IMG/VR virus record: IMGVR_UViG_3300015050_000809
Coordinates: 1-44,165 of that record
Strand: one strand, 5' to 3'
DNA: 44,165 nucleotides
DNA from: a virus
Taxonomy: Duplodnaviria; Caudoviricetes
In this document: positions 17,096-32,707 of the stretch, piece after piece
Numbering within the stretch: position 1 is the stretch's first letter
Layout of the letters: each line of letters starts with the position of its first letter
The notes under the pieces: generated by a model
What the model was told of the DNA's origin: nothing
The model's input: only the letters and a program-made list of their open reading frames with translations
Database searches by the model: none
Program-made: the position numbers and the translations under genes

Positions 17096-17114
17096 GCAGG
17101 GGCTGGCGGAACTA

Positions 17115-17318
17115 TCAAAGTTCCGGCTGCACTTCGTATTTGTCCAATTCCGTTAATAGGACGTCGAACTTCCCCGCGCACTTTTCACACGTGAATATGT
17201 AATAATAGCCATCGTGCCCGTCGAATTGCGGGATGGCGTTTTCAGTTTTCAGGGGATTGCTTACGCCGCAGTGCGGACAATTTTTCGCGCGGACTGGTGA
17301 AGCCTTTTTGTTTTCCAT
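17115..17318 (-). CDS. AT-rich moron-like Zn-ribbon protein
   Basis: CPHC...CEKC; opposite strand to the late operon; visibly lower GC. Confidence 0.65.
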   Translation of the reverse strand: MENKKASPVRAKNCPHCGVSNPLKTENAIPQFDGHDGYYYIFTCEKCAGKFDVLLTELDKYEVQPEL

Positions 17319-17425
17319 GACCTGCCTTTTCCAACGGATTTTCCAGTTCCCACTTTACGGGTTCGCTCGCAGATGAGCAACCGGGCTACGCTCATCAGGG
17401 TGTGCAAATAGCACTCTCCCGGCGG

Positions 17426-17458
17426 GTGCGTTGCTCGTCAGGGTAGTGCTGGCATGGT
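17426..17458 (+). promoter_or_regulatory. Putative late promoter for the lysis cassette
   Basis: GTGCGTTGC 17426-17434; TTGCTC-N16-CATGGT; ATG 6 nt downstream. Confidence 0.65.
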
Positions 17459-17464
17459 CGGGGC

Positions 17465-18238
17465 ATGCTCTTGCTCACTCCCATAGCCGTGCGGCAAATC
17501 TTTCCACAGGCACCGCAGTCAGTCGTCGACGCCTTTGCGTCGAACGAGGGCCAGCTTCGTCTGCATTCCGCCGGCATCACCGACAATGCCGTGCGGCTGG
17601 CCGTGGCGATGGCTCATTGCCATCATGAGACCGGCGGTTTCACGATCCGCAATCTCACTGAGAACATCAACTATTCCGCCGACCGCATGGCCGTGGTCTG
17701 GCCGAACCGCTTTGCATCCGCAGAAGCCGTGCGCGCCAAGTATGGCACCGCGCCCGGCTGGCAAAAGAAGGCCTTCGACGACATCTACGGCAACCGCATG
17801 GGCAACCGGCCCGGCACCTCTGACGGCTCGGCATTCATCGGCCGGGGCGCGCCGCAGATCACCGGCCGGGATGGCTATCGCGAAGTCGGCAAGCGGGCAG
17901 GGTTGCCGCTTGAGGCGCAGCCAGAGTTGGCCTGCCTGCCCGTGAACCAGCCTGCAATTCTCGCTGCCTTCTGGATGTGGAAGGCGATGGGTCCGCTCGC
18001 GGACGCCGGCGGCATCGACGCCACGGTGCGCCCTTGGAACGGCGGGACCAATGGCCTTGTCGACCGCAAGGCGCAGTATACCCGCATCCTGCCGATCGTG
18101 CGCAAGCTTGTCGACGTTCCGGCGCTGCCGGATGTGCCGTCACCAGCACCGGCCAGGCCGTCTGCACCGGTACAGGTGCCATCGCTCATCGAGATCATCA
18201 TCAAATTTATCATCGCTCTTTTTCGGAGGCCATCATGA
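17465..18238 (+). CDS. Endolysin, glycoside hydrolase family 19
   Basis: HETGG, ENINYS, YGNRMGN and FIGRG..QITGRDGY motifs; Pro linker and hydrophobic C-terminal helix. Confidence 0.88.
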   Translation: MLLLTPIAVRQIFPQAPQSVVDAFASNEGQLRLHSAGITDNAVRLAVAMAHCHHETGGFTIRNLTENINYSADRMAVVWPNRFASAEAVRAKYGTAPGWQKKAFDDIYGNRMGNRPGTSDGSAFIGRGAPQITGRDGYREVGKRAGLPLEAQPELACLPVNQPAILAAFWMWKAMGPLADAGGIDATVRPWNGGTNGLVDRKAQYTRILPIVRKLVDVPALPDVPSPAPARPSAPVQVPSLIEIIIKFIIALFRRPS

Positions 18239-18864
18239 ACTGGCAAGACATCGCGGGCCCGCTCGCATCGATCGGCGCGCCGACGCTCGGCAAGATACTC
18301 GGTGGGCTCATCCCTATTCCGGGCGGCGCCATCCTCGGCGAATGGGCAGGCAATGCCCTTGCTGAGGCATTGAACGTCCCCGCTACGCCGGAAGCTGTCA
18401 GCAAGGCTATTGCTGCTGATCCGGTTGCTGCCGCTCACACTGTTGCAAAGGTCGAGGCTGAAGCGTCCGCGAAGTGGCAGGCGCAGGCTGACATCGCCAA
18501 GGCGCAAGCCGAGGTCGGTAAGGCCCAGGTCGAGCAGGTCAATGAAACGATCCGCGCCGAAGCCTCGAAGCCGGACGGATGGTGGGGCAGTTGGCGCACG
18601 GTGCTGGCCTACGAACTCGCCGTCGAATGTCCGCTTTGGGCCGCGCTGATTATGTATTCGGTCGCGATCGACAAGGCCGGTGTGTCGGACCTCATGATGG
18701 CGTCGGGACTTATCATGACGTGGTGGGGCGCGCGTTTCGGCGTCCTCGGCGTTCATGTCTGGACTGGCTCGAACGAGCGTCAGGTCGCAATGACCGGCGC
18801 CCCCACGGGCGGCGTCGCCGGCGGCATCAGCAATCTGGTCAAAGCCATCACGGGCAAGAAGTAA
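18235..18864 (+). CDS. Putative holin (3TM family-like)
   Basis: ATGA overlap with endolysin; APTLG..LGG..PGG N-terminus, VNETIRAE...WR motif and two hydrophobic segments. Confidence 0.7.
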   Translation: MNWQDIAGPLASIGAPTLGKILGGLIPIPGGAILGEWAGNALAEALNVPATPEAVSKAIAADPVAAAHTVAKVEAEASAKWQAQADIAKAQAEVGKAQVEQVNETIRAEASKPDGWWGSWRTVLAYELAVECPLWAALIMYSVAIDKAGVSDLMMASGLIMTWWGARFGVLGVHVWTGSNERQVAMTGAPTGGVAGGISNLVKAITGKK

Positions 18865-18934
18865 AACAGCGGGCTGAGCAGGCGCTTCCGACGTCTGCCC
18901 AGCCCTAGCCGCCACGATCCGAAGGAGGACCGCT

Positions 18935-19351
18935 TTGGCTGAGAACGATCCAAGCACACAGGAACCCCCTCTGCATATGGGGCGCAAGGGCCGCCGGCCG
19001 ACCAACGACACGATTCTGCTCAATATCTTTGAGCGGCTTGGCACGGTCGAAACCCAGAACAAGCAGATCCTGGCCAACGAGAACCGCGCCGCCGACGGCC
19101 GCCAGAAGATGTATGAAGCTCAAGACGCCATCCGGGGCGACGTTCGTGACGTCAAGCACAAACTAGATGCCGTCACCAGCCGCGTCACGTCGATGGAGCC
19201 GGACGTCACCAAGATGAAGGGTTTCCGCGCGCAGCTTGCAATCGCCGTATTTTTCGTGACGTCCGTGGTGTCAGGCGGCATTCAACTCGGGTGGTACGGT
19301 TTCACGCACGCGACAGAGATAAGGGCGGCGATCAGGGAGTTCCTGAAATGA
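18935..19351 (+). CDS. Coiled-coil protein with C-terminal TM segment (lysis module)
   Basis: SD AAGGAGG before TTG; LAIAVFFVTSVVSGGIQLGWYG. Confidence 0.65.
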   Translation: MAENDPSTQEPPLHMGRKGRRPTNDTILLNIFERLGTVETQNKQILANENRAADGRQKMYEAQDAIRGDVRDVKHKLDAVTSRVTSMEPDVTKMKGFRAQLAIAVFFVTSVVSGGIQLGWYGFTHATEIRAAIREFLK

Positions 19352-19719
19352 TCGGCCGAGTGATCGCGCTGCTCATCATCACCGCGGCGCCGGCCCTCGC
19401 ACAGGACACTGAACGCGAACGGCTCAAGGCATGGTATCGCTCACTGATGCAGCCGGACAACCCCGGCATCTCATGCTGCGGCGAGGCGGACGGATATATT
19501 GCCGATAAGGCAGAAGTGGTTGACGGCCAGGTCTATGCGATCATCACCGACACGCGGCCCGACGAACCGCTTGGCCGCCGGCATATCCCACCGGGAACGC
19601 GCTATCTCGTCCCGCCGCACAAGATCACATGGAAGCATGGCAACCCGACCGGCCATACCGTGATCTTCATTAGCGCGGCCGATCAGGTGCTCTGCTACGT
19701 ACAGAGCGGCGGCGTCTAG
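19348..19719 (+). CDS. Secreted Cys-containing hypothetical protein
   Basis: Signal peptide MIGRVIALLIITAAPALA; SCCGEAD, GNPTGH and VLCY motifs. Confidence 0.7.
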   Translation: MIGRVIALLIITAAPALAQDTERERLKAWYRSLMQPDNPGISCCGEADGYIADKAEVVDGQVYAIITDTRPDEPLGRRHIPPGTRYLVPPHKITWKHGNPTGHTVIFISAADQVLCYVQSGGV

Positions 19720-19732
19720 CGGTCATGTGATG

Positions 19733-19972
19733 TTACCGAGCATAAAGCTCGAACGCATTGTCGTGCAGGATTGAGGCAAAGGGCTCGCCCAGCGGCTCTT
19801 GAGAATTGAAAAAGTCGCTCATCTTCTGTGCTCTTCGATCAGCCACATCCAGCCATTCTTGTGCCCAGTATTGGTTAGACCAGCGGCCTTCTGCCTTGCG
19901 CCATTTCCGTTCCAGCTCTGCGTCAGTTTGCCGAGCTATCAAACGCTTATGCAGTTCAGGATTTTCCGCCAT
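19733..19972 (-). CDS. Hypothetical protein
   Basis: SD GGAGG before ATG 19972 (MAENPELH). Confidence 0.65.
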   Translation of the reverse strand: MAENPELHKRLIARQTDAELERKWRKAEGRWSNQYWAQEWLDVADRRAQKMSDFFNSQEPLGEPFASILHDNAFELYAR

Positions 19973-20207
19973 CTCGGCCTCCATACTGCTGATATGCGCG
20001 AGACGCCCGGTAGAAGTCTTCCGCCACAAGGCCATCGTCGGTGTCCGTCCAAATCGGATCGTCTGGCAGACACTTAAATCGGGAGCCAAGTTCGGCAAAC
20101 GGCTTTAGTGCCGCCCTCAACCGGATAACCTCGGTGACAAGAGCGGCTGTCGTCTCGATGTTAACCGGCACTATGCCGCCCGGTCGGGTCAGTTCCGCGA
20201 TGTCCAT
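19956..20207 (-). CDS. Hypothetical protein
   Basis: 83 aa with RLRAALKPFA motif common in rhizobial phage early ORFs. Confidence 0.65.
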   Translation of the reverse strand: MDIAELTRPGGIVPVNIETTAALVTEVIRLRAALKPFAELGSRFKCLPDDPIWTDTDDGLVAEDFYRASRAYQQYGGRDGGKS

Positions 20208-20219
20208 GGCTTTCCCTAA

Positions 20220-20381
20220 CTACCTAAATGGGTGAATTGTTTTGTAGTTCGGCCAGCGGCCTTCAAGCTTAATCACGCGGCGCTTCGCAATGATCCAGCC
20301 TTGGTCGAAGATGCCAAATTCCCACGGGCCGAGATACCAGAGCGGTTCATCGTAGCCGATATAGACACCTAGTATTTTCAT
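20220..20381 (-). CDS. Hypothetical protein (53 aa)
   Basis: SD GGAGG before ATG. Confidence 0.6.
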   Translation of the reverse strand: MKILGVYIGYDEPLWYLGPWEFGIFDQGWIIAKRRVIKLEGRWPNYKTIHPFR

Positions 20382-20408
20382 TTCAGCCTCCATACGACAC
20401 GTATGCAA

Positions 20409-20669
20409 TTATTCCGCAATCTGCGCCGGCGGCTCCGGCAGCGGCATCCAGCAAATTAATTTGCACGGCCACGGGCCTTCTTCGGGGTCATCGTTCGCAT
20501 CCCACTGCGACCAAATATCAATCCATTTGACGATGCCGACCACAGCCGTCCCCTGAAGGCCGATATCACCATACGCAAGGATGCGCGAACCGTCCTTTGG
20601 AGCCGTCTCCATCGGGCGCCATAGCAGCCGGTCGGCAAGCTCTTTTAGTTCGTCCAATTCAGCCTCCAT
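20409..20669 (-). CDS. DUF551-like protein
   Basis: WRPMETAPKDG...WMPLPEPP; true start may be TTG 20657. Confidence 0.75.
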   Translation of the reverse strand: MEAELDELKELADRLLWRPMETAPKDGSRILAYGDIGLQGTAVVGIVKWIDIWSQWDANDDPEEGPWPCKLICWMPLPEPPAQIAE

Positions 20670-20687
20670 ACTAGCCAAATGGGTGCA

Positions 20688-20894
20688 TCAGCGCGGCAAC
20701 TGCGCCACGAAATCGTTCCAAAGCCCCTTGGACCCGATGAAGCCATCTCGTGACATCAGGTTCAGTTCAAGGCGCTCTATCGTCTCGATAGCCTCCTTGA
20801 TGAGCTTGCCAGAATAATAGTGGCTACGCTCGACGGTCGCCTGACGATGCAGGTCGCGAAGGTCATCGAGAAGCTTCTTGGTGTCTGGGTCCAT
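20688..20894 (-). CDS. Hypothetical protein
   Basis: 68 aa, SD AAGGAG. Confidence 0.7.
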   Translation of the reverse strand: MDPDTKKLLDDLRDLHRQATVERSHYYSGKLIKEAIETIERLELNLMSRDGFIGSKGLWNDFVAQLPR

Positions 20895-20927
20895 TTCAAT
20901 TCTCCTTAAGCGGCGGTATGGGCGAAT

Positions 20928-21200
20928 TTAGCGCGGCTCCCGGCCAGTGTAGTAAGCCGACCCGGTGCCGCTATAAGAGCCGGAACAGTCGCCAATAGGC
21001 TCAGGTGGCTTAGTGCGTCCGGTTGCGGCAATGATGGCATCGCCCATGCTGGCGACAAAGCCATGGCCTCCGCACTCAGTTATCTGCTTGGTCAGGGCCT
21101 CCTGAAATTCCCAGATTGTCAGATGACGCCTTGCCTCGATAAACAGGGCAAAGGCGTTCCTGATATTGGACGAAGCCGCGATTTTTTGATCTTCCGTCAT
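20928..21200 (-). CDS. Hypothetical protein
   Basis: 90 aa, SD AGGAG. Confidence 0.7.
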   Translation of the reverse strand: MTEDQKIAASSNIRNAFALFIEARRHLTIWEFQEALTKQITECGGHGFVASMGDAIIAATGRTKPPEPIGDCSGSYSGTGSAYYTGREPR

Positions 21201-21224
21201 TTCAGACTCCTGTGAGCATTCGCG

Positions 21225-21422
21225 TCATGTCCGATCATTCGGCTTGCTGACGATAAGCGCGAAGGCGCGCAGCACATCAGCAAGCTCGTTGGCCTGTTCC
21301 GGTGTGAAGCGCATGTTTGAGCCGCAATCGTCTGTGTCCAAATATAGATTGATGCTGCCGTGATCGTCGCTGACGTGAGCCACCTGACGGCTAAGCAGTC
21401 CCTTAATTTCTCTCGTTATCAT
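21225..21422 (-). CDS. Hypothetical protein
   Basis: MITREIKG..., 65 aa, purine-rich RBS. Confidence 0.6.
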   Translation of the reverse strand: MITREIKGLLSRQVAHVSDDHGSINLYLDTDDCGSNMRFTPEQANELADVLRAFALIVSKPNDRT

Positions 21423-21436
21423 TCGCCCATACCCCT

Positions 21437-21613
21437 CTAATGGCGTGTGCCATCGATGACGACCTTGCAAACCTGATCGTCAGGAAGAAGGTCAACGACT
21501 TGGCCGCCAAATCTCGATACCGTGTAAGTCTTGTCGGCTGCGGAGATAACTTCGACGCTCTCGTAACCGCCGAAGTATCTTGTCGTCACAACTGATCCTG
21601 CTTTGAGCATCAT
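21437..21613 (-). CDS. Hypothetical protein (58 aa, not in the ORF track)
   Basis: MMLKAGSVVTTRYFGGYESVEV...GTRH fills the gap exactly. Confidence 0.6.
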   Translation of the reverse strand: MMLKAGSVVTTRYFGGYESVEVISAADKTYTVSRFGGQVVDLLPDDQVCKVVIDGTRH

Positions 21614-21625
21614 CGGATACCACCC

Positions 21626-21949
21626 CTATCCGTTGACCACTTCGGGGAAGTCCTGGTGGTGCGTGTAGTGTTGGAGCCTCAGTCGCTTTTCGCGTGATCG
21701 TCTGTGAACGTCCGCGCCGTTGAAGTCGCCAAGCTCGGCCATCAAGTCCATGACGCAATGAACGTCGCCAAGCTCTTTGACGAGCATCGCGCGGTTGTCC
21801 GGCCCGTTGGGGTCGTCGGGATGATACGAGCGGTAGCCGTGGCGCAGAATCTTGCCGATGATTTGGACGGCCTCGCCGCATTCTTCGGCTAGGATGGCCA
21901 ACCGCTCGGCTTCTGCCGGCGTCAGTCCGTTGAAGTGTCGGTTGCTCAT
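21626..21949 (-). CDS. MazG-like nucleotide pyrophosphohydrolase
   Basis: LAEECGEAVQ..GK..RHG and ELGDV acidic motifs. Confidence 0.75.
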   Translation of the reverse strand: MSNRHFNGLTPAEAERLAILAEECGEAVQIIGKILRHGYRSYHPDDPNGPDNRAMLVKELGDVHCVMDLMAELGDFNGADVHRRSREKRLRLQHYTHHQDFPEVVNG

Positions 21950-21965
21950 AATTCCATACCTCTCC

Positions 21966-22241
21966 TTATTGAACATCGCCAAGGCCGAGGATTACCCATC
22001 CCGCCTCGACGCCAAACCGTCCACCGGTCATGACGTAGGTGATGCGCTTCCTGAGTTCTTGGAAGCCAAAGCGCGCTCCAGGAGGGCTGACGTATCGCTG
22101 GTGCTCGTGGTCAAACTTTTGAAGAACCAGAATGTCACCCTTCTGGTATCCACGATCGTCAAACCGTGCCTCGAATGTCTTTTCTCCCGATGCAATCGCG
22201 TCGAAGTAATTGCACCAGCATTTCAATCTATGTTCGACCAA
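21966..22241 (-). CDS. ASCH/DUF3850 domain protein
   Basis: H.LK....YFDAI.SGEKTFE.R.DDRGYQ.GD.L.L. Confidence 0.85.
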   Translation of the reverse strand: MVEHRLKCWCNYFDAIASGEKTFEARFDDRGYQKGDILVLQKFDHEHQRYVSPPGARFGFQELRKRITYVMTGGRFGVEAGWVILGLGDVQ

Positions 22242-22285
22242 GATTCTCTCCTGTTGTCGTGAGCATTCGGCCCATTAAGGCGAAT

Positions 22286-22585
22286 TTAACGGCAGATCGG
22301 CACGCGCTTGCGCCAAACGTCCTTTTGAGACTCGGACAATTCTGACCACGCTGCGAAGCGGTTGGAGTGGATGGTCGGATGGTTGTCGGCGTCGTGTTCA
22401 TAGGCGAGCCGCGCGCCAGCATCAGCGTCATCAGCCTGTATGATTGGCGCTGTCGCGCGACGACCGTCAGCAATCGCCTGCGCGATGTCATGGATAAACG
22501 CATCGAAGTCATCGAAATGCTCTAGGCCAGCGCGCTCACCGAGTGCCTTGGCGTCGTCCATATCGCGTTTCGTTACCAGTTCCAT
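22286..22585 (-). CDS. Hypothetical protein
   Basis: 99 aa, SD AAGGAG; WSELSESQK..W motif. Confidence 0.7.
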   Translation of the reverse strand: MELVTKRDMDDAKALGERAGLEHFDDFDAFIHDIAQAIADGRRATAPIIQADDADAGARLAYEHDADNHPTIHSNRFAAWSELSESQKDVWRKRVPICR

Positions 22586-22596
22586 CGAAATTCTCC

Positions 22597-22827
22597 TTAA
22601 CCGTTCTTGACCGCACGTACCGTCTCGATCCGCACCTTTTCGATACTGACGCCCTGCTTGCGAATATCAGCCCACGTCTGCCGGACGCCATCGTGACGTG
22701 GCCAATTATCGACAACGGCATCCTTGACCTGGTTGGCCTGCGCCCGTGCGGACCACGTCATGATGTAGGGGGTGCGACCGTTGTGGTTGATCGCAACAAA
22801 GCCGGGCGTCGTCACTTTTGCAGCCAT
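22597..22827 (-). CDS. Hypothetical protein
   Basis: MAAKVTTPGFVAI, SD AAGGAG. Confidence 0.7.
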   Translation of the reverse strand: MAAKVTTPGFVAINHNGRTPYIMTWSARAQANQVKDAVVDNWPRHDGVRQTWADIRKQGVSIEKVRIETVRAVKNG

Positions 22828-22858
22828 TCGATTTCTCCTTATGCATGATGACCGCGAA

Positions 22859-23035
22859 TTATCGCGCCTCGATCTCATCGCGGATGCTTTTGATCGTGCG
22901 CTCGATGCTCGGTAGCCAGTCGGCAGCGCGGGCCATGTGTTCTTCATTTCCCGAAGCGCGAGTCATGCAGGCAAGCGCGTGAACGCTCAGTAGTTGCTCT
23001 ATGGCGACTTTCGCGAGGGTTGATACGGTCTCCAT
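22859..23035 (-). CDS. Hypothetical protein (58 aa, not in the ORF track)
   Basis: METVSTLAKVAIEQ...IEAR, SD AAGGAG. Confidence 0.65.
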   Translation of the reverse strand: METVSTLAKVAIEQLLSVHALACMTRASGNEEHMARAADWLPSIERTIKSIRDEIEAR

Positions 23036-23063
23036 TCGATTGCTCCTTCATGACGTCCGCGAA

Positions 23064-23216
23064 TTATGTTTTTCCGGGCTCTTTATCCTTCAGGCATTTG
23101 TCGATGGCACTTGCCAGAGCGTAGGTGTTTCTGAACTCCGGGTGCTTGAGGCCGGTGTTGGGTATCTGGTTGAGCGCAAATAATGCGGCTCGCAAAAGCC
23201 TTTCGGTTTCATTCAT
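23064..23216 (-). CDS. Hypothetical protein (50 aa, not in the ORF track)
   Basis: MNETERLLRAALFALNQIPN; ATGA overlap with the MTase stop. Confidence 0.6.
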   Translation of the reverse strand: MNETERLLRAALFALNQIPNTGLKHPEFRNTYALASAIDKCLKDKEPGKT

Positions 23217-23737
23217 AGAAGCGTTCCCTTTCTTTCTGCGACACAGATCGTATCGTTGTGGCCGCCGCCATGATTGACGAGGGCGACCTCGATCATTTCG
23301 TAGCCTCGCCCTTTGCCCATGCCGGCTGACTGCCAGCCGAACGAGAGGACGATCCCGCCGGGGGCGATAATCTCGTCCAGCGCATCGCGGACCCTCTTGT
23401 ACAGCCTGCCGTTTTGGGTTTCTTCCATCCCGACTTTCAGGCCCACAGCCTTATAACACTCGGAGATTTGCCTCGGTGAATAAGGCGGGTCAAAAATCCC
23501 GAGGTCGGCAATCACGCCGTCAGCCTTCAGTTTCTCAAGATAGGCCCCAGCGTCCATGTGATGCTGCGCCGAAGTCTGCGGGTTGAGGTCGTTCGTATGG
23601 GTGAACCACGTTTTATTGCGAGCAAACGGGTCTACGCTGACGGTGGCGCTAGCCAGGTAGCGCTGCACAAACGCTCCGATGGGGGCGACTGTGAACGTCT
23701 CCGAGTTCGGCATCGCAAATACGCGGGTCATCTTCAT
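23213..23737 (-). CDS. Small adenine-specific DNA methyltransferase
   Basis: VDPFA SAM-binding motif and FDPPYS catalytic motif. Confidence 0.8.
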   Translation of the reverse strand: MKMTRVFAMPNSETFTVAPIGAFVQRYLASATVSVDPFARNKTWFTHTNDLNPQTSAQHHMDAGAYLEKLKADGVIADLGIFDPPYSPRQISECYKAVGLKVGMEETQNGRLYKRVRDALDEIIAPGGIVLSFGWQSAGMGKGRGYEMIEVALVNHGGGHNDTICVAERKGTLL

Positions 23738-23775
23738 TGTCGGTTTCCAAATTCGCCCATATTGGCAGTCACCGC

Positions 23776-23976
23776 TTATCTAGCGTCTCGCAGCGCCAGG
23801 TACGCCTCGACCGCCGGTCGAAAGCGGGCACCCTTTGGCCACGTCGCCTTGTCCTTTTGCGTCTTAGTATCGGCGTCGAGGTCTGCGATAACCTGCTCAT
23901 AGTCAGGCCGGGTGATCGTGATTTCCTCGTCGTAGATGAACATGCCCGTTGACCCGATTTGCTCTTTTTTAACCAT
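23776..23976 (-). CDS. Hypothetical protein
   Basis: SD AGGAGG before ATG 23976. Confidence 0.7.
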   Translation of the reverse strand: MVKKEQIGSTGMFIYDEEITITRPDYEQVIADLDADTKTQKDKATWPKGARFRPAVEAYLALRDAR

Positions 23977-23988
23977 TTCACCCTCCTG

Positions 23989-24057
23989 TAAGTCCTTGAT
24001 TTTGGCTGATTCAACGCAAATCAATAAAGTGTTGGACCAAGCAATATCAATGGGTTA
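23989..24057. other. Candidate att site: TGATT-N7-AATCA core flanked by two IHF consensus boxes
   Basis: WATCAANNNNTTR matches at 23989-24001 (minus) and 24045-24057 (plus); core 24007-24023; AT-rich, immediately 3' of the integrase. Confidence 0.55.
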
Positions 24058-24993
24058 CTTGCCAACCTTTTGAAGTGTTTGTTTTGGCTGTTCTCGTGGC
24101 GTTCTTTGCATGAAATGGACGGCCGCCAGAGCGCGCTCGGTTTTGTCAGCCAGCCGCGAATATCGCGCGACCATCGGCTCCGAAAGGCCGACCATGTCGC
24201 AGATGTTCATGACGCTGGCGCCGGCCTTGCGGAGGCGCACGATCGCAGTCGCACGCAGCCCGTGAAGCACCAGGCCGGCCGCCTTCAGCTCGGCCAGCGC
24301 CTCGTTATTGTCGCGCTCGTGGTTCCAGTGCCATGACAGCAGTTCGCGGGTGTAGGGCCTGCCGTTCGGCTTCAGGACATAGGGGCCTGGCTTCTTCTCC
24401 CATCCCTTCATGGCCTCGATCAGATCAGGGGTGAACGGAACCCACAGGCGAACCCCCGTCTTTTTCTGGATCACATTGATGCCGGGGTGGCCGTGGTTGA
24501 CCTCGATGTCGCTCGGGCACATGCGGACGACGTCGCTGCCGCGCTGGCCGGTGTTGACTGCAAGGGTGATGACGCGCGCCAGATCAGGCCGGGCATACTT
24601 TTCGGCCAGTTGCACCTGATCGTCAGTCCAAGGCTCATGCCCGCCATCGCTCTTGACCACTTCGGTTCCGGTCATGAACGGATATGGAACGCGGTCACGC
24701 ACCAATGCCCATCGCTCCACCGAGCAAAGCGCCGTTCGCGCGATCGTCTGCTTACCCGGCGTCTCTGCGAGTTGGTCCAAGAATATCTGCACCAAGGCAG
24801 GGCGGATTGTCTGGACGTTGTAGGCGCCGAGCGCGCCTTCCCGCTGTGCCAGATCAAGAACGCTGAGATAGTTGCGTTTGGTCGAGGGCGCCAAACTCGT
24901 GTACGAATCTGATTTTTTATAGGCGCTAATAACTGCCGCGAAGCTTCCCGGCATGACTAGCGCAGTTCGGCTCCTAGTTTTCATGGATAGCAT
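24055..24993 (-). CDS. int: Tyrosine recombinase/integrase
   Basis: TGQR.SD, QKKTG, HGLR and MVARY catalytic motifs; 312 aa with no evident N-terminal arm-binding domain. Confidence 0.92.
   Translation of the reverse strand: MLSMKTRSRTALVMPGSFAAVISAYKKSDSYTSLAPSTKRNYLSVLDLAQREGALGAYNVQTIRPALVQIFLDQLAETPGKQTIARTALCSVERWALVRDRVPYPFMTGTEVVKSDGGHEPWTDDQVQLAEKYARPDLARVITLAVNTGQRGSDVVRMCPSDIEVNHGHPGINVIQKKTGVRLWVPFTPDLIEAMKGWEKKPGPYVLKPNGRPYTRELLSWHWNHERDNNEALAELKAAGLVLHGLRATAIVRLRKAGASVMNICDMVGLSEPMVARYSRLADKTERALAAVHFMQRTPREQPKQTLQKVGK
24090..24104. promoter_or_regulatory. Alphaproteobacterial LexA (SOS) box inside the integrase 3' end
   Basis: GTTC-TCGTGGC-GTTC, exact GTTC-N7-GTTC. Confidence 0.5.
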
Positions 24994-25231
24994 GGCGCAT
25001 CCTTTCTGCTGTGTTGTCCTGGGGGACTATACCCTCGTCGCCTTCCATCAGGCGGTCCACCTCAGACCATTTCCACATGCGTTTGCCCCCGCGCGGGCGG
25101 GCTGGCGGCAGGATTCCCTGCCGTACCCAGGTATCGAGCGTCGTCTCGCTGATGCACAGATGACGGCAGAGCGTCGGTGCATCTTGCCATGGGGGCGGGT
25201 AGGGCAATGTTTTCATGTTCAGTTGCACCAT
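24974..25231 (-). CDS. Excisionase / AlpA-like HTH
   Basis: LCRHLCISETTLDTWVRQGILP...KRMWKWSEV; overlaps the integrase start. Confidence 0.8.
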   Translation of the reverse strand: MVQLNMKTLPYPPPWQDAPTLCRHLCISETTLDTWVRQGILPPARPRGGKRMWKWSEVDRLMEGDEGIVPQDNTAERMRHAIHEN

Positions 25232-25232
25232 A

Positions 25233-25394
25233 TTAACGCGAATATCCCCACGTCACCGTGGCGGTAATTCCAAGGGCGCATAGCCAATAGAAGCTATCGA
25301 CCCATCCGCCGTGGACGCCCCAGCGCAGCACGTTCGCCGCGTAAAGGCCCATGATGACGTAGTTGAATATCTTGGGGTCCAAGAGGATGCTCAC
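25233..25394 (-). CDS. Small membrane protein (53 aa, not in the ORF track)
   Basis: GTG start overlapping the MTase stop; two hydrophobic segments (IFNYVIMGLYAANVL, FYWLCALGITATVTW). Confidence 0.6.
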   Translation of the reverse strand: MSILLDPKIFNYVIMGLYAANVLRWGVHGGWVDSFYWLCALGITATVTWGYSR

Positions 25395-26050
25395 AGCATG
25401 GCCTCCTGCTTGGCTGGCTTAGGACGCTCAATGAACATATCCGGCGCGTCTAGCGCTGCCTGGATGCGGCGGCAGGCGATGTCGAAGTACGTTTCATTCA
25501 ACTCTATGCCGGTGAATGAGCGTCCGAGCTTCGCAGCGGCAACGCCAGTTGTTCCGGAACCCATGAACGGGTCCAAAATGGTCCGTGCCGTGCCAATCTC
25601 GCGGAGAGTGAACATCATCACCGCAAGAGGTTTTTGAGTCGGGTGGCCTACGCGCTCGGGATTTGTCGAACTGATAGAGCAATTAATCTGCCGGGAATTT
25701 TGGTCAAGATTGGTCCAAGCAAGCTCAATGCTACCCATGCTCGGGGGAGCATCCGGCTTGAACCAAGACAGCCAACCGCGCGACGGCTCTAGCCCGTAAT
25801 AGTTACCGCCCCACACGACCTGCTTTCCGCCGTAACCCAAGATGCGGGGCAAATCGGCTACCACGTTATCATCCCACGCTTCTGCTTTGTGACCGGCTCG
25901 ACGTTGCCATTTGGTGGGTTGTCCTGCGAAGCCAATCCCATACGGAGGGTCCGTAACCACGGCGTCGAACTTTCCCAGCGTTGGCAAAATTTCGCGACAA
26001 TCCCCCAAGTAGAGGGTGACACCTTCGGCTATGGTTTCAATTCGGCTCAA
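25391..26050 (-). CDS. N6A/N4C DNA methyltransferase, beta class
   Basis: TDPPYG before HPTQKP and ILDPFMGSGTT; probable TTG start 26050. Confidence 0.9.
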   Translation of the reverse strand: MSRIETIAEGVTLYLGDCREILPTLGKFDAVVTDPPYGIGFAGQPTKWQRRAGHKAEAWDDNVVADLPRILGYGGKQVVWGGNYYGLEPSRGWLSWFKPDAPPSMGSIELAWTNLDQNSRQINCSISSTNPERVGHPTQKPLAVMMFTLREIGTARTILDPFMGSGTTGVAAAKLGRSFTGIELNETYFDIACRRIQAALDAPDMFIERPKPAKQEAML

Positions 26051-26124
26051 TGTTTTCGCCTTAATGAGAGATATGCGAACGGTGAAGCATGGGGCATTTG
26101 CGCCCCACACCCCACCGGAGAACC

Positions 26125-26415
26125 TCACGACTCTGCGAAGGCGATGATGTCCTGAGGGACAGACCGTTTTGCAGCGTTCGTGATCTGCAATTGAGTTTTT
26201 ACAGTTCGTAGAATTTCGCGAGCTTGGGTCGCAACCGCGTCGGCACGATTGGCCTGGATGTTGTTTGAGCGAACGTCGAGCAGCGTCTCCCAAAGAACGT
26301 CACGCAAGACTGACGCCTTCAGAGGGCCGATAACGGTGACGCTCGCCTTCTGCGTTCGTTTCGCGACGGCGGCTTTGCGTTTTGTTGAGGGTGCCGTTTT
26401 GGCTACGGATTTCAT
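26125..26415 (-). CDS. Hypothetical protein
   Basis: SD AGGAG before ATG 26415; helical C-terminus. Confidence 0.6.
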   Translation of the reverse strand: MKSVAKTAPSTKRKAAVAKRTQKASVTVIGPLKASVLRDVLWETLLDVRSNNIQANRADAVATQAREILRTVKTQLQITNAAKRSVPQDIIAFAES

Positions 26416-26854
26416 AGTCTGTGCTCCTGCTTTTGATTTCCCGGTTAAGGTCCACCGCCAACATGGCGGCATCTGCAAATGGGCCATACAACCGCTTGGA
26501 CCTATATTTGCGGTCGTATCCCTTCTTCCAACGCTTGTACTCAGGTTGCCGGCAGTACTCGACGTGCCGGGGCATTCGCTTCTTGCGTTCCACGCGAGCC
26601 TTCGCAGGGTCGTATGTGGCAAGGAAGTACGCAGCTTTCTTTGCCTTGATCGAGGCAAGGTTTTTGGAGCGATAAGCGGCGTCATAATCACGTTTCTCGG
26701 CTACCCGCTGCGCTTTGGGCTTGTACGGTTTGCGCCGCGCCTTGCCCGCACACTTGCGACCACAGAAAATTCTCAGACCAGACGCACGGGCGCGATTAAC
26801 TGCGCCGTTGGGCTTCTCGGTTTTCTTCCTGCAATGGGCGCAAATAATTTTCAT
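26300..26854 (-). CDS. Basic Zn-finger protein
   Basis: CAHC...FCGRKC followed by Lys/Arg/Tyr-rich helix. Confidence 0.7.
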   Translation of the reverse strand: MKIICAHCRKKTEKPNGAVNRARASGLRIFCGRKCAGKARRKPYKPKAQRVAEKRDYDAAYRSKNLASIKAKKAAYFLATYDPAKARVERKKRMPRHVEYCRQPEYKRWKKGYDRKYRSKRLYGPFADAAMLAVDLNREIKSRSTDYEIRSQNGTLNKTQSRRRETNAEGERHRYRPSEGVSLA

Positions 26855-26867
26855 GTTCGTTCTTGGC

Positions 26868-27062
26868 TTATATGCTCACGCTTTTTTCGGCATCGGCTTT
26901 CTCGCACTCAATACAGCGAGCGCGTTTCGGCACACCCTGGCTGGCTTTGCGATGCTGCTCGTGGCCACACTCAAGCGTCAACTTGATCGACTTCGGGATG
27001 TAGCCGGTGTAGCGGCAGGCCCCGACGTATTCGAAATTGGCGATGGGCTTAAGCATGGTCAT
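26868..27062 (-). CDS. Small Zn-ribbon-like protein
   Basis: LECGH...CIEC. Confidence 0.6.
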   Translation of the reverse strand: MTMLKPIANFEYVGACRYTGYIPKSIKLTLECGHEQHRKASQGVPKRARCIECEKADAEKSVSI

Positions 27063-27088
27063 CTCTGTGTTTGGTGACTGGCTGAATG

Positions 27089-27286
27089 CTAACGAGCCTT
27101 GCTGATCGTATTGGTGATCGCCACGCCTTTGACCTCGATGGTCTCAACCAGCGCATAGACGCCAATCTTGACCTTCTGGCCCATCTCAGCGGTGTCTTCG
27201 GCGGCGCTGTATGCGCTCATGTAGTCAGGACCGGTGCCGCCATCTTCAAACTTGATGAAAATCTGCTTCGGAAACTTGTTCGCCAT
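27089..27286 (-). CDS. Hypothetical protein
   Basis: 65 aa, SD AGGAG. Confidence 0.7.
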   Translation of the reverse strand: MANKFPKQIFIKFEDGGTGPDYMSAYSAAEDTAEMGQKVKIGVYALVETIEVKGVAITNTISKAR

Positions 27287-27324
27287 TTTACTTCTCCTGT
27301 TTGTGGTTCAGTGGATATCGGGCG

Positions 27325-27552
27325 TTAGCGATGAGTGGCGGCTGTCATTGGTGCATGCTCACCAGGCCCGTGACGCCCGCGCCCGCATCTGTTGCCCTTT
27401 GGATGCACAGCCTTTCGATCTTCCAGACTGTTTTTCGCGCGCCAGACGATGCCAGCGACTGTGCTGCGGGTCAGTCCGTAGCGATCTGCGACAAGCTGGT
27501 AGGACATACGCTTCACATCAGACAGAATTGCATTGCGCGTCTTTTCCAACAT
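27325..27552 (-). CDS. Small HTH protein (GcrA N-terminus-like)
   Basis: SYQLVADRYGLTRSTVAGIVWR. Confidence 0.6.
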   Translation of the reverse strand: MLEKTRNAILSDVKRMSYQLVADRYGLTRSTVAGIVWRAKNSLEDRKAVHPKGNRCGRGRHGPGEHAPMTAATHR

Positions 27553-27833
27553 TTTCAGGCTCCCATATCAGTCGTAACAATTGTCGCGGCGCGGCTGGGG
27601 TCCCAGCATTTCGATATTGGCGAACGCAATTCGCCTCACTTATGACCAGGCGGCTTAGGCCCGCCTGTCGTGCCACCTGTGTTCGTTCTTCTGTCATGTC
27701 CGGGCCAAGAGCTTGCGCGCTCTCTCAGCGGCCATCTTCTGCCTTTGATCGGGCGACGGCCTGCCAGCCTTCTTCAGTGTAATCTTCCGCATCTTCGGCG
27801 CTTTCTTCATGTTCGTTCTTGTCCCGTGTCCGG

Positions 27834-28880
27834 TTACGCCGGCTGCTTCAGAAACTCGACTGCCTTCATGACGTCGTTCTTGAGCGCGGCGAATGATCCG
27901 TCTTCCGGCCATTCGATTGCGTCGCGCGTGGCCTTGTCTTCGTTCCAAGCCTTGCCGAGCTGCGCGGCGCTGGTGGCGCTGTCGATCGTGGTGCGCCACT
28001 TCGCGCAATAGTCGGCGGCTGAAAGTGTGGCCGACCCGTCCGCGGGGGGATTAACGGACGGATCGGCCGGGCGCACGGCATCCGTGGGGACGGCGGGCCG
28101 CGGCGAGGGGGAGAGAATTTCAGCGGTGCTCGGTGCCGGCGACTTCTCGCGCGCGGCAATCGGGCTGAACTCGGCATCAATGATGAGGCCCTTGTCGGGC
28201 GAGATATGCGCGCCCTGGCCCTGTTCCTCGAACGCCTCATCCATGCGGGCCGCCATCTGCATGACGTTGAGCGGCATCGAGCGCGCCAGCCGCCGCTTTG
28301 CCGACTTCTCGGCCATTGCAGGGAAGCCAATTGCGGTATCATTCCACGGGCTATCCGACCGTTTCGCGCCGGGCGACTTCGCCTTGATTGCCATGATGTC
28401 GTCGATGCCGAGCACCGATACGATCGGCGGCCGGTCCTTGGCGGCGGCCACTGCCCACGCGGCGATGATGCGCCGGCCGGGATCTCCCAGCTTCTTCTTG
28501 TGCCGGACGAATCCTTTATCGCCTTCCTCGAAATCGAACTCGTCGCCCTCGCGCACCACGCCGCCGGTGACGGTCAGACCTGAGCGCGCGGCGAGGGTAT
28601 TGTAGCCCTTGTAGCCGATGACGAGCTGGGCCTTGCCCTTGAACGGGATCAGGTAGCCTTGGCCGGTCACGCCGTCGACCTCGATGCCGAGACAGGCGGC
28701 CGACATTGCCGCGTTGAAAATGCTCTGCCGGTCACAGTCCAGGAGCATCGGCAGGCGCTCCACGGAGATCATGACGGTGCGCATCAAGCGCTCGACCGGC
28801 ATGGTGTTGCCAAGCACCTCGGCAAATCGGGGGGCGAGCGGCTTCAACTGGTTTTCGAGAACGACAAGCGCTTGAGACAT
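27834..28880 (-). CDS. recT: RecT-family single-strand annealing protein
   Basis: LG.E...GQGYLIPFKGKAQLVIGYKG, VVREGDEF and SPW....MAEKS..RRL. Confidence 0.9.
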   Translation of the reverse strand: MSQALVVLENQLKPLAPRFAEVLGNTMPVERLMRTVMISVERLPMLLDCDRQSIFNAAMSAACLGIEVDGVTGQGYLIPFKGKAQLVIGYKGYNTLAARSGLTVTGGVVREGDEFDFEEGDKGFVRHKKKLGDPGRRIIAAWAVAAAKDRPPIVSVLGIDDIMAIKAKSPGAKRSDSPWNDTAIGFPAMAEKSAKRRLARSMPLNVMQMAARMDEAFEEQGQGAHISPDKGLIIDAEFSPIAAREKSPAPSTAEILSPSPRPAVPTDAVRPADPSVNPPADGSATLSAADYCAKWRTTIDSATSAAQLGKAWNEDKATRDAIEWPEDGSFAALKNDVMKAVEFLKQPA

Positions 28881-29800
28881 TAACAGGCCCTCATGATGTC
28901 AGGATTGAGCGTTTCGCGCGGACCGACATCGGCAAAGTCCGGCACATATACGGACATGCGCTTCACGCCGGTCTTCGACGTCGAGCACTTCACCTTGACG
29001 CCCTCGGGCAACAGAACTTCCTCGTTGTCCTTGGCCAGAGCGATCAGTTGGCCGCGCAGCTTCTCGGCGGCATTGCCGTGCGCCGTCGCCTCGGCCTTGT
29101 GGAACTTGAACATCGCGACAAGTTCGGCCAGCGAGTGGCCGTTGATTGCGTCGGTCAGGTCCAGCACGTTGCCGACGACGGTCGGGAACAGGCGGTTGAG
29201 CAGCGGCACCTCGATCGGCAGGCCAAAGGGGTCCGGTTCTTTGCTCTCCTTGACCGAGAGAAAGAAGGCATCGGCCTCGTCCGTCATCTTCTCCCAGAGA
29301 TCAGGCAGCGGCGCGCGCTCAAAATAGTGCTGCTCGCCCGCGACCCATGCCGCGATGACGCCCCAGGTGTAGGGCTTGCCGTCCGGGTCCCCGACGAGCA
29401 TCTGCTGTTGCAGTTGGATCTCATGCTGGCGCGGCGGGGCCTTGCCGCCCTGCCAATCGCTCATCCATGTGCGGTAGTCGAACACGCACTTGGTTTCGAG
29501 GGCGCCGGGGCCGCGGTCGGGGCAGATGATCTGAGCGTCGCGGGTGCAGCCCAGAAGGCCGCGGCGCATGTAGTCGTCGCCTGCGTTCGGCTGGACTTCC
29601 AGTTTCAGATCTTCGGCGCACTGCTCAAGGACGAGGGGTTGAAGCTTCTTGCCCCAATTCATGCGCTCGTCGGCCGGCGAGTCGATGTCGACGCCGTTCG
29701 CAAAGTGCTGCCACAGCATCCAGCGGGTATAGTATGGCGACACGCCAAACAGCGCGGCAGTCTGGGTCGCGCTGATCGTGGCCTTGGTCGGATCAGGCAC
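28880..29800 (-). CDS. YqaJ-like viral recombinase exonuclease
   Basis: ISAT..AA.FGVSPY.T...LW, M.WGK.L, TRD...LETK and QLQQQM. Confidence 0.85.
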   Translation of the reverse strand: MPDPTKATISATQTAALFGVSPYYTRWMLWQHFANGVDIDSPADERMNWGKKLQPLVLEQCAEDLKLEVQPNAGDDYMRRGLLGCTRDAQIICPDRGPGALETKCVFDYRTWMSDWQGGKAPPRQHEIQLQQQMLVGDPDGKPYTWGVIAAWVAGEQHYFERAPLPDLWEKMTDEADAFFLSVKESKEPDPFGLPIEVPLLNRLFPTVVGNVLDLTDAINGHSLAELVAMFKFHKAEATAHGNAAEKLRGQLIALAKDNEEVLLPEGVKVKCSTSKTGVKRMSVYVPDFADVGPRETLNPDIMRAC

Positions 29801-29984
29801 CGGCGACCACCATCGAATTGTCGTGGCGGTCGATGACCGCGATCATGTCGCGGTACAGGGCCAGCAGCTTGCGATAGCCGGCCTTGCGGGGGCACTCCCG
29901 CTGCAGCTTCGCCATGGCCGTTTCGATGCGCTCGACGCGGGCCACGTAGTTGTCTCGCTGGGAAATGATGACGGATTTGAGCAT
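29793..29984 (-). CDS. Hypothetical protein
   Basis: 63 aa, overlaps the YqaJ start. Confidence 0.6.
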   Translation of the reverse strand: MLKSVIISQRDNYVARVERIETAMAKLQRECPRKAGYRKLLALYRDMIAVIDRHDNSMVVAGA

Positions 29985-30007
29985 CGGATAACCCCTGTTA
30001 ATGCGAA

Positions 30008-30424
30008 TTACGCGGCGATCTTTGCGCGCTCGCGCTCAACGACTTCCTCGCTAAACGTCTCCGCGATGTCGCAAAGTTCTTCGAGCGTCTTTACAAACAC
30101 CCATTTCAGTTGGTAGTGGCCCCAAGAGGAACTGTGGCTCTTTCCATCAGCCGAGAAGTCGCGCGGTATTGGCCTCGCCAGTTGCGCGAGGAAGCCGACG
30201 CTGTCCCGATTGCCAAACTCCATCGCGACCTCATCGGCGTCCGCCCCTTCATCGGTCCACGCCTTAAGCCATGGCAGCGCGGCCAGGACCTGGGTGCATT
30301 CGTGGAGTTCGTCGTTTATGAAGTCCGTAAAGCTTTCCGGCGCGTCGGCAGCAATGCCGCCCGTCCAAATCAGAGTTTCGATACGGACGTTTGCCTCGTG
30401 CATTCTTTCAGCCAGCGTGTTCAT
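30008..30424 (-). CDS. Hypothetical protein
   Basis: 138 aa, SD AAGGAG. Confidence 0.75.
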   Translation of the reverse strand: MNTLAERMHEANVRIETLIWTGGIAADAPESFTDFINDELHECTQVLAALPWLKAWTDEGADADEVAMEFGNRDSVGFLAQLARPIPRDFSADGKSHSSSWGHYQLKWVFVKTLEELCDIAETFSEEVVERERAKIAA

Positions 30425-30445
30425 CGGTCGGCTCCTTAATGCGTG

Positions 30446-30787
30446 TTATGTGCGAATATCGTTGAGGGCCTTCGCCGCGCTGCGGAAATCGTCCGCGTAC
30501 AAAGGTTCTTCCCGAGTGCGCGTTGCGAAATGGCTCGACACGAACAATTCGCCAGTGCCGCCGCGATCAAGCCCATCTAGTGCCGAAGGGCGTCCGGCTT
30601 CGCCGTTGATCGGTTCAGCAATCTTGGCGAATGGTCGGATGGCGGCTTCCAGTGCCGCGATGTAGTCAGACAAGAACACGTCATCCCGGTTGGCCTGAAT
30701 TACGGCCAGCCTTTTCTCGATCATGTGCCTTGCGGGATTGGCTCGCGCGTGGAGCCGTTCGATTGCGCCTTTGAGGCCCTTAGTCAT
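30446..30787 (-). CDS. Hypothetical protein
   Basis: SD GGAGG before ATG 30787; LEAAIRPFA motif. Confidence 0.65.
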   Translation of the reverse strand: MTKGLKGAIERLHARANPARHMIEKRLAVIQANRDDVFLSDYIAALEAAIRPFAKIAEPINGEAGRPSALDGLDRGGTGELFVSSHFATRTREEPLYADDFRSAAKALNDIRT

Positions 30788-30956
30788 GGTGAACGTCCTC
30801 CACCCGCTCAATTGGCGGCTCGGTGAATTTGCATTTGCAGGCAACGCCGTCCCAACTATCGGGGCCACCCTTGCGCCAGCCGCACGCTTGGCAGAACGGA
30901 CGTAATGGCTGCGGGTTAGGATTGTCGCCAGCAATGACGGTGAAAAATCGCGGCAT
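30780..30956 (-). CDS. Small Zn-binding protein (58 aa, not in the ORF track)
   Basis: MPRFFTVIAG...FCQACGWRKGG.DSWDG.ACKC. Confidence 0.6.
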   Translation of the reverse strand: MPRFFTVIAGDNPNPQPLRPFCQACGWRKGGPDSWDGVACKCKFTEPPIERVEDVHHD

Positions 30957-30967
30957 GATCGGTCCTG

Positions 30968-31117
30968 TTACGGTTCGCGCTCGATGGACTGCATTTCTTC
31001 AATCGCCTGCCGTGCCGTAAGGCCGCGCGAAATCATCGCGCGCAACGTGTCCTTACGGGAGACGCCGTAGAATTGGTGCCAGTACAAATCCCACATGGCT
31101 TCGCGGTAGTTCGGCAT
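30968..31117 (-). CDS. Hypothetical protein (49 aa, not in the ORF track)
   Basis: MPNYREAMWDLYWHQFYG, SD AGGAG. Confidence 0.6.
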   Translation of the reverse strand: MPNYREAMWDLYWHQFYGVSRKDTLRAMISRGLTARQAIEEMQSIEREP

Positions 31118-31154
31118 CGGCTGCTCCTGACGTTCGGTCATCTGGCGTTACTGC

Positions 31155-31592
31155 TTATGCGGCGTTCGCGCCGCGCTTCCGTTTGATGCTGAACGGGCCT
31201 TTGCCCGCCATTTCATCCGCGAGCTTGCAGGCGTCATCACCCCATCGCGCGATCTGGGCAGCGTCGAACTCTTGGCGCAGCGCGGCGTCGGTGCAGTCGC
31301 CGGTCTCGGTCGTCAGGCGAATGATGGCCAAAGCCATGCTTCTGATAGTTTGGGAGCGGTGTTCGTCAGAATACTTAGCCCACTTCTCCCTGAGATCGAC
31401 GAGGGCCTTCTCGAACGTCTTGCCACGAACAGAGATGCTGCCTTTTGTGCTGCACATCCCGTACGGGTACAGGACGGCGTACACAGAGTCGGTGGCGTAA
31501 CCATCGCAATCAACGTGCAGGCTTGCGTAGGCATTCGCCCCCGCCTCGTTCTTAATCGAGGCCAATTCCTTAGAGATTTCTGCTGGTGTCAC
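31155..31592 (-). CDS. Hypothetical protein
   Basis: SD GGGGAG before GTG 31592. Confidence 0.7.
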   Translation of the reverse strand: MTPAEISKELASIKNEAGANAYASLHVDCDGYATDSVYAVLYPYGMCSTKGSISVRGKTFEKALVDLREKWAKYSDEHRSQTIRSMALAIIRLTTETGDCTDAALRQEFDAAQIARWGDDACKLADEMAGKGPFSIKRKRGANAA

Positions 31593-31634
31593 GTCGGTCT
31601 CCCCGTTTTGTGTTTGGTCATCAGCCAAATGCTC

Positions 31635-31742
31635 TTACGAGCCGAAGTGGCGGTGCGGCAGAGCTTTGGTTTCGCGGTAGTGGTGCACGGCGAGGCCGAG
31701 CAAAACCGAAGTGATGATCGTGATGAATGTGAGCGCGATCAT
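31635..31742 (-). CDS. Small membrane protein (35 aa)
   Basis: MIALTFITIITSVLLGLAV; ATGA coupling. Confidence 0.55.
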   Translation of the reverse strand: MIALTFITIITSVLLGLAVHHYRETKALPHRHFGS

Positions 31743-32706: not shown

Positions 32707-32707
32707 G

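Follow-up and report, generated by a model that had tools for sequence, protein, structure and literature searches.

Address-like centres at the gene junctions of a phage early operon: candidate crossover sites for slot-by-slot gene exchange

Why are the early genes of a phage separated by short sites that share one geometry and yet differ in their middle letters? The question is raised by IMGVR_UViG_3300015050_000809, a complete phage record of 44,165 bp with direct terminal repeats, the whole of which was analysed and is called the window here. Its early operon, which runs leftward from about 32630 to 19733, contains small genes bordered by 29-bp sites, each composed of two inverted 11-bp arms around a 7-bp centre. 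We refer to the stretch between two neighbouring sites as a slot and to the centre as its address. An earlier note, made from the letters alone, had described an integron-like array for the acquisition and shuffling of gene cassettes. Our analysis suggests that the sites are probably crossover points for slot-by-slot gene exchange between phage genomes, carried out by a putative tyrosine recombinase that is probably not the adjacent integrase.

All 14 site strings listed in the earlier note were found at their positions in the window. In leave-one-out scoring, 12 of them stood out (of the roughly 44,100 positions, 0 to 32 unlisted ones scored as high), and the two noted at 21217 and 22268 failed (1627 and 1103 positions score as high) and turned out to be mis-registered. 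Their correct starts are 21210 and 22257; the corrected centres recur in other phages, and the centres as originally noted match no retained site in any other genome. A perfect TTAA-N7-TTAA box of the CtrA type at 22275-22289 overlaps site 22257 and is what had been registered as 22268. An arm matrix was built from the 12 good sites, with the late genes and the right arm serving as junction controls that have ordinary stop codons and ribosome-binding sites (RBS). At 7-bp spacing, the matrix gave 13 hits in 19700-24000, none in the late genes (1-19700) and none in the right arm (32700-44165). In the held-out region 24000-32700 it gave 5 hits, compared with a mean of 0.84 in dinucleotide shuffles, none of which (0/300) reached 5. 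Other spacings gave 0 to 3 hits per region, with the exception of 11 bp, which had 4 late-region hits. Iterative retraining of the matrix drifted to noise by the third round, and that round was left out of the counts.

The array had been placed downstream of the integrase, a description that is too narrow, as 12 further sites lie upstream, from 25215 to 31610. With the comparative data, the total amounts to 26 sites (11+7+11 bp) between 19715 and 31638, flanking the integrase on both sides (Table 1). Nearly all of them sit at a stop-start junction. Two junctions within 22859-23737 have no shared site, and one of them bears a degenerate copy of site 22831. The centres are all distinct within the window (26/26), and none of the 14 retained genomes contains a pair of centres that are reverse complements of each other. 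The sites thus have the recombinase-type geometry attributed to them, with inverted half-sites around an asymmetric overlap within the range of 6-8 bp. For the comparative counts, the automatic address list was trimmed by hand, dropping 21 entries (overlapping registers, IHF/attP and excisionase-coding matches, and likely chance hits), and G018, a near-copy of G015, was dropped entirely; the retained set consists of 173 sites with 43 centres in 14 genomes.

Comparison of the window with other phages revealed that the centres are kept in order while most slot contents are unrelated. G001 was obtained by a RecT search, and the further members came mostly from integrase-centred searches; the site-bearing phages measure 38-52 kb. 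The content that G001 has in common with the window is limited to recT/yqaJ, part of the replication module and a few small genes. Among 70 site-like positions in the window early arm, the same 7-bp centre is present in G001 for 16, without any break in the order, and one more match lies off the diagonal. The collinear centres shared with the window number 17 in G001, 15 in G006, 8 in G007, and 6 in each of G008 and G009, and the slots between shared centres without tblastx similarity amount to 14 of 16 for G001, and to 11 of 13 and 7 of 7 in two further comparisons. Across 333 scanned loci, chains of 5 to 17 window centres were found in five other phages, and 200 letter-shuffled sets never exceeded 3. 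A second centre set forms chains of 8 to 16 in nine of the loci, corresponding to eight distinct phages; as it was derived from the same phages, these chain lengths are not independent, and the evidence for the second set is the pairwise matrix. The two sets overlap distally, with the centres of 19715, 19975 and 20209 in common and a counterpart of 20384 that differs by 1 base. Matching free of the arm model was decisive for G001 (17) and G006 (15), against no more than 10 in shuffled sets.

Pairs with chains of 5 or more numbered 41 at 7 bp, 5 at 8 bp and 0 at 9 bp; controls with 5- and 6-bp centres were set aside, because short words match more often and hence give many chains, and A+T-rich loci yielded spurious chains. 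The full two-arm consensus pattern had no match in viral contigs, and two single-site patterns matched 7 and 8 loci, adding one true member (G007) beyond G001. The fixed order of centres across phages with mostly unrelated neighbouring genes speaks against the integron-like shuffling proposed earlier. The homology-tolerant mechanism invoked for unlike spacers is not needed either, since the centres differ within a genome and match between genomes, which suggests homology-dependent exchange. In the early arm of G008, two centres each have a second copy about 1.1 kb away, with their order unchanged, suggestive of a duplication or the addition of a slot block. L188, L190, L154, L239, L237 and L315 are enriched in 7-bp sites, have no clear partner in the set compared and possibly represent further address groups; L315 carries three window centres.

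Analysis of same-address pairs between phages, with unrelated flanks (377 pairs), indicated where the conservation ends. Identity is 1.0 over the 7 columns of the centre, by construction. In the column before the centre it is 0.76 at the same address versus 0.69 between different addresses, and in the column after the centre 0.45 versus 0.37. The exact match extends 0 bases rightward in 172 of 320 pairs. The arms have a loose core, C-S-N-W-N-A, which is inverted on the other side. The complementarity of the two arms of a site (4.40 of 11) is that of random pairs (4.24 +/- 0.12), and the arms, not being complementary beyond chance, are therefore read as two protein half-sites on double-stranded DNA rather than as a hairpin. 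It had been cautioned that the motif partly overlaps stop and RBS signals. The arms do overlap both, but the core bases remain where the signals are absent: C at arm position 6 occurs in 92 of 112 arms with a terminal stop triplet (control 30/89) and in 46 of 61 arms without one, and G at the mirror position occurs in 59 of 76 arms lacking an RBS word.

The boundaries of shared cassettes lie at centre edges in several comparisons. Between G011 and G015, a 611-bp cassette of 95% identity begins 4 bases ahead of one centre and stops with the final base of the centre that follows. Two public sequencing runs of one study, X1 and X2, of which contigs were used, hold relatives of the cassettes and not the window phage itself (6-7% of its words). 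In these runs, pieces matching 20670-20917 and 21619-21966 extend from centre to centre and diverge outside, further pieces begin or end at 20220, 25233 and 26865, and joints replace the content between sites 22590 and 22831, 26054 and 26853, and 29980 and 30429. Among the matches listed (19700-31650), 11 of 48 boundaries fall within 1 base of a centre edge, where 1.7% of positions lie, and 29 of 48 fall in or beside a site, compared with 9.8% of positions, a count that is inflated by short site-only matches. Collinear centres, unrelated slot contents and cassette boundaries at centre edges support the exchange of genes at the sites. On the expectation that breakpoints of relatives fall in the spacer, the data point both ways: they are concentrated at centre edges in these cassettes, but most whole-phage BLAST ends lie elsewhere and some joins link unlike centres.

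Several observations weigh against site-specific exchange of this kind. Only 8 of 44 whole-phage BLAST ends lie in a site in both genomes, many of the off-site ends concerning the excisionase-integrase module, and a coarser, uninformative BLAST count placed 5 of 100 starts at sites, its six ends within a site being an excisionase-coding match. Unlike centres are joined between G001 and G006, between G011 and G016, and at 20402-20922 in contigs, and one ORF (open reading frame), 91% identical from start to stop, occupies one slot in G014 and another in G016, with arms that differ too. Strict matching of centres does not account for these joins and the moved ORF. X1 and X2 come from one study and are contigs only, with boundary counts taken among the matches listed; the arm-model-free values of G007, G008 and G009 (10, 11 and 9) are not clearly above the null maximum of 10. 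The arms are very degenerate, with both cores complete in 55 of 173 sites, their statistics are partly circular, as the sites were picked with the matrix, and a matrix-free rescue was muddy (27 found versus 11.6 expected by chance). PF00589 searches and the comparison of shared families yielded no candidate for a cognate recombinase, and all members except G001 and G007 were found by an integrase query, so that the lack of a common protein is judged on a biased set.

We infer the class, chemistry and source of the recombinase as follows. Each arm would bind one recombinase monomer on double-stranded DNA, the strands would be cut at the two edges of the centre with a 7-base stagger, and the exchange would be completed between identical centres only. 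A 7-bp overlap with a homology requirement is characteristic of reactions of the lambda-integrase type. Unique centres would guard the array against internal deletion or collapse. Two crossovers, between co-infecting phages or between a phage and a prophage, would replace one slot or a run of slots in register, and the incoming gene would bring its own arms, which would double as stop codon and RBS, and would be expressed from the operon. Infrequent reactions between non-matching centres could delete slots, move genes between slots and create new addresses, and the near-duplicate site around the gene at 22859-23035 might be attributed to such a reaction. The enzyme would be supplied in trans, by the host or by a co-resident element.

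The adjacent integrase had appeared to be the obvious driver of the array, a role at odds with the sites on both sides of it and with the occupancy of its own slot. The excisionase-integrase module constitutes slot 25215-23751, which is filled by one family in the window and G006 and by another in G001. The G001 integrase has no match to the window integrase in a direct search and is 19% identical by profile. Judged from these sequences, the integrase itself is cargo, as two distant families occupy this one slot. Both integrase families are accompanied there by a small gene that follows attP (23776-23961; L003 7163-7364), is kept at 46-59% identity and by eye resembles the N-terminal part of the group-B excisionase-like genes. 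That the phages' own integrases perform the same addressed exchange, acting on core-type sites without arm sites and with both families reading the same loose half-site, is unlikely. Such a scenario would agree with the single PF00589 gene in 14 of 15 member records (the G006 integrase falls below threshold), with the weak alignment of the two families along their length (hhalign probability 28.7%), with the short window integrase (312 aa), and with two perfect half-site consensus words that stand inverted, 2 bp apart, in the presumed attP after most group-B integrases (G011-G016). It is difficult to reconcile with families only 19% identical, and among the 165 integrase-flanking loci that measure at least 6 kb, just 15 contain an excess of 7-bp sites (controls 4 and 6). 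In addition, a named Bradyrhizobium phage whose group-B integrase is 49% identical lacks the address set, and the post-integrase stretches of members contain no consistent address-like site. Among the members compared, a set mostly found through integrases, no protein family occurs in every site-bearing phage, and RecT is patchy, with PF03837, the one annealase family searched for, in 1 of 10 further members. Together with the few integrase loci that have a site excess, this favours an enzyme in trans. A host genome with the address set was not found, as helicase relatives (80 loci) and RecT in species genomes (2 loci) gave no members, and the set is absent from two named Bradyrhizobium phages.

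Three further accounts dispense with addressed exchange by a recombinase in trans. The integron-like model of the earlier note, in which circular single-gene cassettes are inserted and reshuffled within the genome by a homology-tolerant recombinase, is very improbable. It would be in line with promoterless single ORFs tightly bounded by sites, with joins of unlike centres and one ORF in two slots, and with the gene at 22859-23035, which lies within 22831-23064 between site 22831 and its near-duplicate at 23036, as after single-crossover insertion of a circular cassette. However, the order of the centres is fixed, and centres travel with neither neighbouring gene. The integron simple site has a 7-bp overlap geometry, and the integron core words are GTTRRRY and RYYYAAC. 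These words occur in 0 and 3 of the 173 sites, respectively, and neither is present in any of the 26 window sites; the arms, complementary no more than random pairs, are unable to fold into attC-like hairpins, so the earlier statement that the sites are not attC stands. The IntI model has no match to the window integrase, and the G001 integrase scores 32 bits against a cut-off of 265. No backward joint was present among the matches listed for the two contig sets, a weak point, since contigs drop rare forms. The sites could instead be short linkers used by RecT/Red-type annealing or by a nuclease and a ligase, with the palindrome as a cutting mark or a by-product of stop and RBS signals, and we assign this a small probability. 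The recT and yqaJ genes inside the array point in this direction, conserved boundary sequences have long been proposed for phage mosaicism (PMC3029335), and Rad52-like recombinases drive the mosaicism of temperate phages (PMC3945230). But the median exact run is 10 bp long and a length of 20 bp is attained in 13 of 320 pairs, which falls short of the 23-27 bp of the Red-beta pairing segment (PMC3945230); conservation ends sharply at 7, PF03837 is as rare as stated above, and the arm core is retained where stop or RBS words are missing. Least probable of all is a role of the sites as operators for a transcription factor, whether CtrA or a stoperator-type phage repressor, with no part in recombination. 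With their W-N-A inner ends and 7-bp separation, the two half-sites are similar to the CtrA box TTAA-N7-TTAA (PMC9437464), one full TTAA half is present in 76 of 173 sites, and the sites are confined to one operon. CtrA binding had been named as an alternative that would undo the recombination model, but the full box is absent from all 26 window sites and occurs in 2 of the 173 sites in total, repressors are not common across the members, and operators would leave unexplained both an invariant centre with variable arms and homology that ends at the centre edge.

The dif site is laid out as 11-6-11 with the inner motif ATAA-N6-TTAT. This motif is found in none of the 173 sites and the conserved centre is 7 bp, in agreement with the earlier view that the sites are not dif. 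A canonical-looking dif-like 11-6-11 site is present at L009 2481 and at L011 and L012 2229, in RecT-bearing phages without the address system. Shufflons consist of invertible segments between identical crossover sites, a pattern that the array does not show, as all ORFs are co-oriented and 26 of 26 centres are distinct. The pdif modules of Acinetobacter plasmids, recombined by XerC/XerD, also place accessory genes between short recombinase-type sites with the enzyme encoded elsewhere (PMC6449649); in contrast, the phage sites are 11-7-11, all co-oriented in a phage operon, and form ordered addresses common to genomes. Engineered recombinase-mediated cassette exchange with heterospecific lox/FRT sites is alike in its inverted half-sites, asymmetric spacer and two different spacers flanking a swappable segment (PMC3553980), whereas the phage sites are natural, provide 26 addresses in a single genome and 43 in the retained set of 14, and combine highly degenerate arms with a 7-bp centre. 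Integrons and phage-borne attC clusters share the single promoterless ORFs between sites and a stop codon often located in the site (PMC9892861), but the phage sites have no hairpin, core words or IntI, their order is fixed, and the centre stays when genes change. The PeSL cassettes of T4-type phages are also repeated intergenic elements that mediate modular shuffling of non-essential genes (PMC2839356); they consist of a promoter and a stem-loop, whereas the phage sites have no promoter, terminator or hairpin, and each centre is unique. Boundary (linker) sequences likewise are short conserved gene borders that keep order as modules change, but they were proposed to work by homologous recombination (PMC3029335), and here the common part is exactly 7 bp inside a dyad. 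The parts covered of a 2026 prophage review (PMC13492144) and of the phiCbK paper (PMC3556154) contain nothing similar, and a literature search found no description of such address-coded sites, most subscription papers and supplements lying outside its coverage.

The left part of the genome contains head genes of the podovirus type followed by a lysis module that ends at 19719. Around 33000 there are repressor and Cro-like genes, followed on the right by replication and terminase genes. Short tandem repeats at 36514-36570, within the replication-initiator gene, are likely origin iterons. The gene directly upstream of the first site (31861-32358), whose protein start is signal-peptide-like, is common to G006 (58%) and G007 (53%). 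The best named relatives of the integrase, at about 26-31% identity, belong to phages of Azospirillum, Komagataeibacter, Paracoccus and Rhizobium, and the host is probably alphaproteobacterial, as judged from integrase and DNA matches only. Two close phage relatives, L108 and P0005, are filed under Salinibacterium and Patescibacteria assemblies and are probably mis-binned contigs. The A+T-rich stretch after the integrase has boxes that resemble the IHF consensus. Most slots measure 122-339 bp and hold one ORF each, like the single promoterless ORF cassettes of integrons; promoter-like hits numbered 2 versus 5.2 expected, with no excess of promoters or terminators at the sites. None of the 23 cargo proteins tried had a PADLOC match, and there was no Rfam match either. 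In slot 26054-25215, the window carries an N6/N4 methyltransferase gene and G001 an unrelated gene that by eye resembles a C5 cytosine methyltransferase (L003 4665-5441); slots may be biased toward a function, given these two unrelated methyltransferases.

Table 1. Junction sites, cargo and neighbouring genes of the window ("others" are other genomes with the same centre)
Feature	Coordinates	Strand	Remarks
Junction site, last of array	19715..19743, centre 19726-19732	-	Centre common to 9 other genomes
Cargo, 16 small co-oriented ORFs, most without family	19733..23976	-	
Junction site	19975..20003	-	Centre common to 7 others
Junction site	20209..20237	-	Common to 3 others; X2 contig piece begins at centre base 20220
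Junction site	20384..20412	-	Common to 4 others; contig joints at 20402
Junction site	20660..20688	-	Common to 2 others; contig piece 20670-20917
Junction site	20899..20927	-	30/31 bases same in G001, genes unrelated on both sides; loose end 20910
Junction site (corrected from 21217)	21210..21238	-	Recurring centre; loose end 21228
Junction site	21421..21449	-	Common to G001
Junction site	21609..21637	-	Common to 2 others; contig piece 21619-21966
MazG-like pyrophosphohydrolase (cargo)	21626-21949	-	
Junction site	21948..21976	-	Common to 2 others; contig pieces stop at 21966
DUF3850/ASCH protein (cargo)	21966-22241	-	
Junction site (corrected from 22268)	22257..22285	-	Recurring centre
Junction site	22590..22618	-	Common to 2 others; joint 22613-22841
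Junction site	22831..22859	-	Common to 2 others
Degenerate direct-repeat copy of site 22831, outside the 26	23036..23064	-	By alignment, centre 1 base off; contig match 23049-23072
DNA methyltransferase (cargo)	23213-23737	-	
Junction site closing excisionase-integrase slot	23751..23779	-	Common to G001, G006
A+T-rich stretch after integrase, putative attP	23977..24054	-	Inferred from sequence; one IHF-like box conserved in G006
Tyrosine integrase, 312 aa, sole PF00589 gene of genome, inside a slot	24055..24993	-	
Excisionase-like helix-turn-helix gene, start within arm of site 25215	24974..25216	-	
Junction site opening excisionase-integrase slot	25215..25243	-	Common to G001, G006; contig pieces end at 25233
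Cargo upstream of integrase: N6/N4 methyltransferase (25391-26050) and small ORFs	25391..27810	-	
Junction site	26054..26082	-	Recurring centre
Junction site	26853..26881	-	Common to G006; contig piece ends at 26865
Junction site	27067..27095	-	Common to G006
Junction site	27307..27335	-	Common to G006, G007
Junction site	27557..27585	-	Common to 3 others
Junction site	27679..27707	-	Common to 3 others
Junction site after recT	27809..27837	-	Common to G001
RecT and YqaJ exonuclease genes, within a slot	27834..29800	-	78-85% identical to G001
Cargo ORFs, first slots of early leftward operon	29793..31592	-	
Junction site	29980..30008	-	Common to G006; joints at 30009, 30012
Junction site	30429..30457	-	Common to G001, G006
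Junction site	31130..31158	-	Common to G001, G006
Junction site, first of array found	31610..31638	-	Common to G001, G006

Precise swapping at gene borders with the order kept is usually ascribed either to relaxed homologous recombination or to illegitimate recombination followed by selection. In these phages the borders consist of defined sequences, and their rule, the matching of 7-bp centres, is sharp and testable, which bears on the long-standing question of mosaicism; exchange at the sites gives concrete form to the boundary-sequence idea (PMC3029335). If true, it would constitute a natural multiplex cassette-exchange system and determine between which phages genes can be traded, and the enzyme, together with the many orthogonal sites, might be of use as a genome-engineering tool. 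A broader proposal, which we consider possible rather than probable, is that dozens of orthogonal 7-bp crossover sites form a community-wide code read by a host or helper tyrosine recombinase, with the whole early arm, recombination and integration modules included, as a set of plug-in slots, and with programmed site-specific exchange as a general source of mosaicism. In that case, phages with unrelated virion modules would share the code, and drift of a single base in a centre would split exchange groups.

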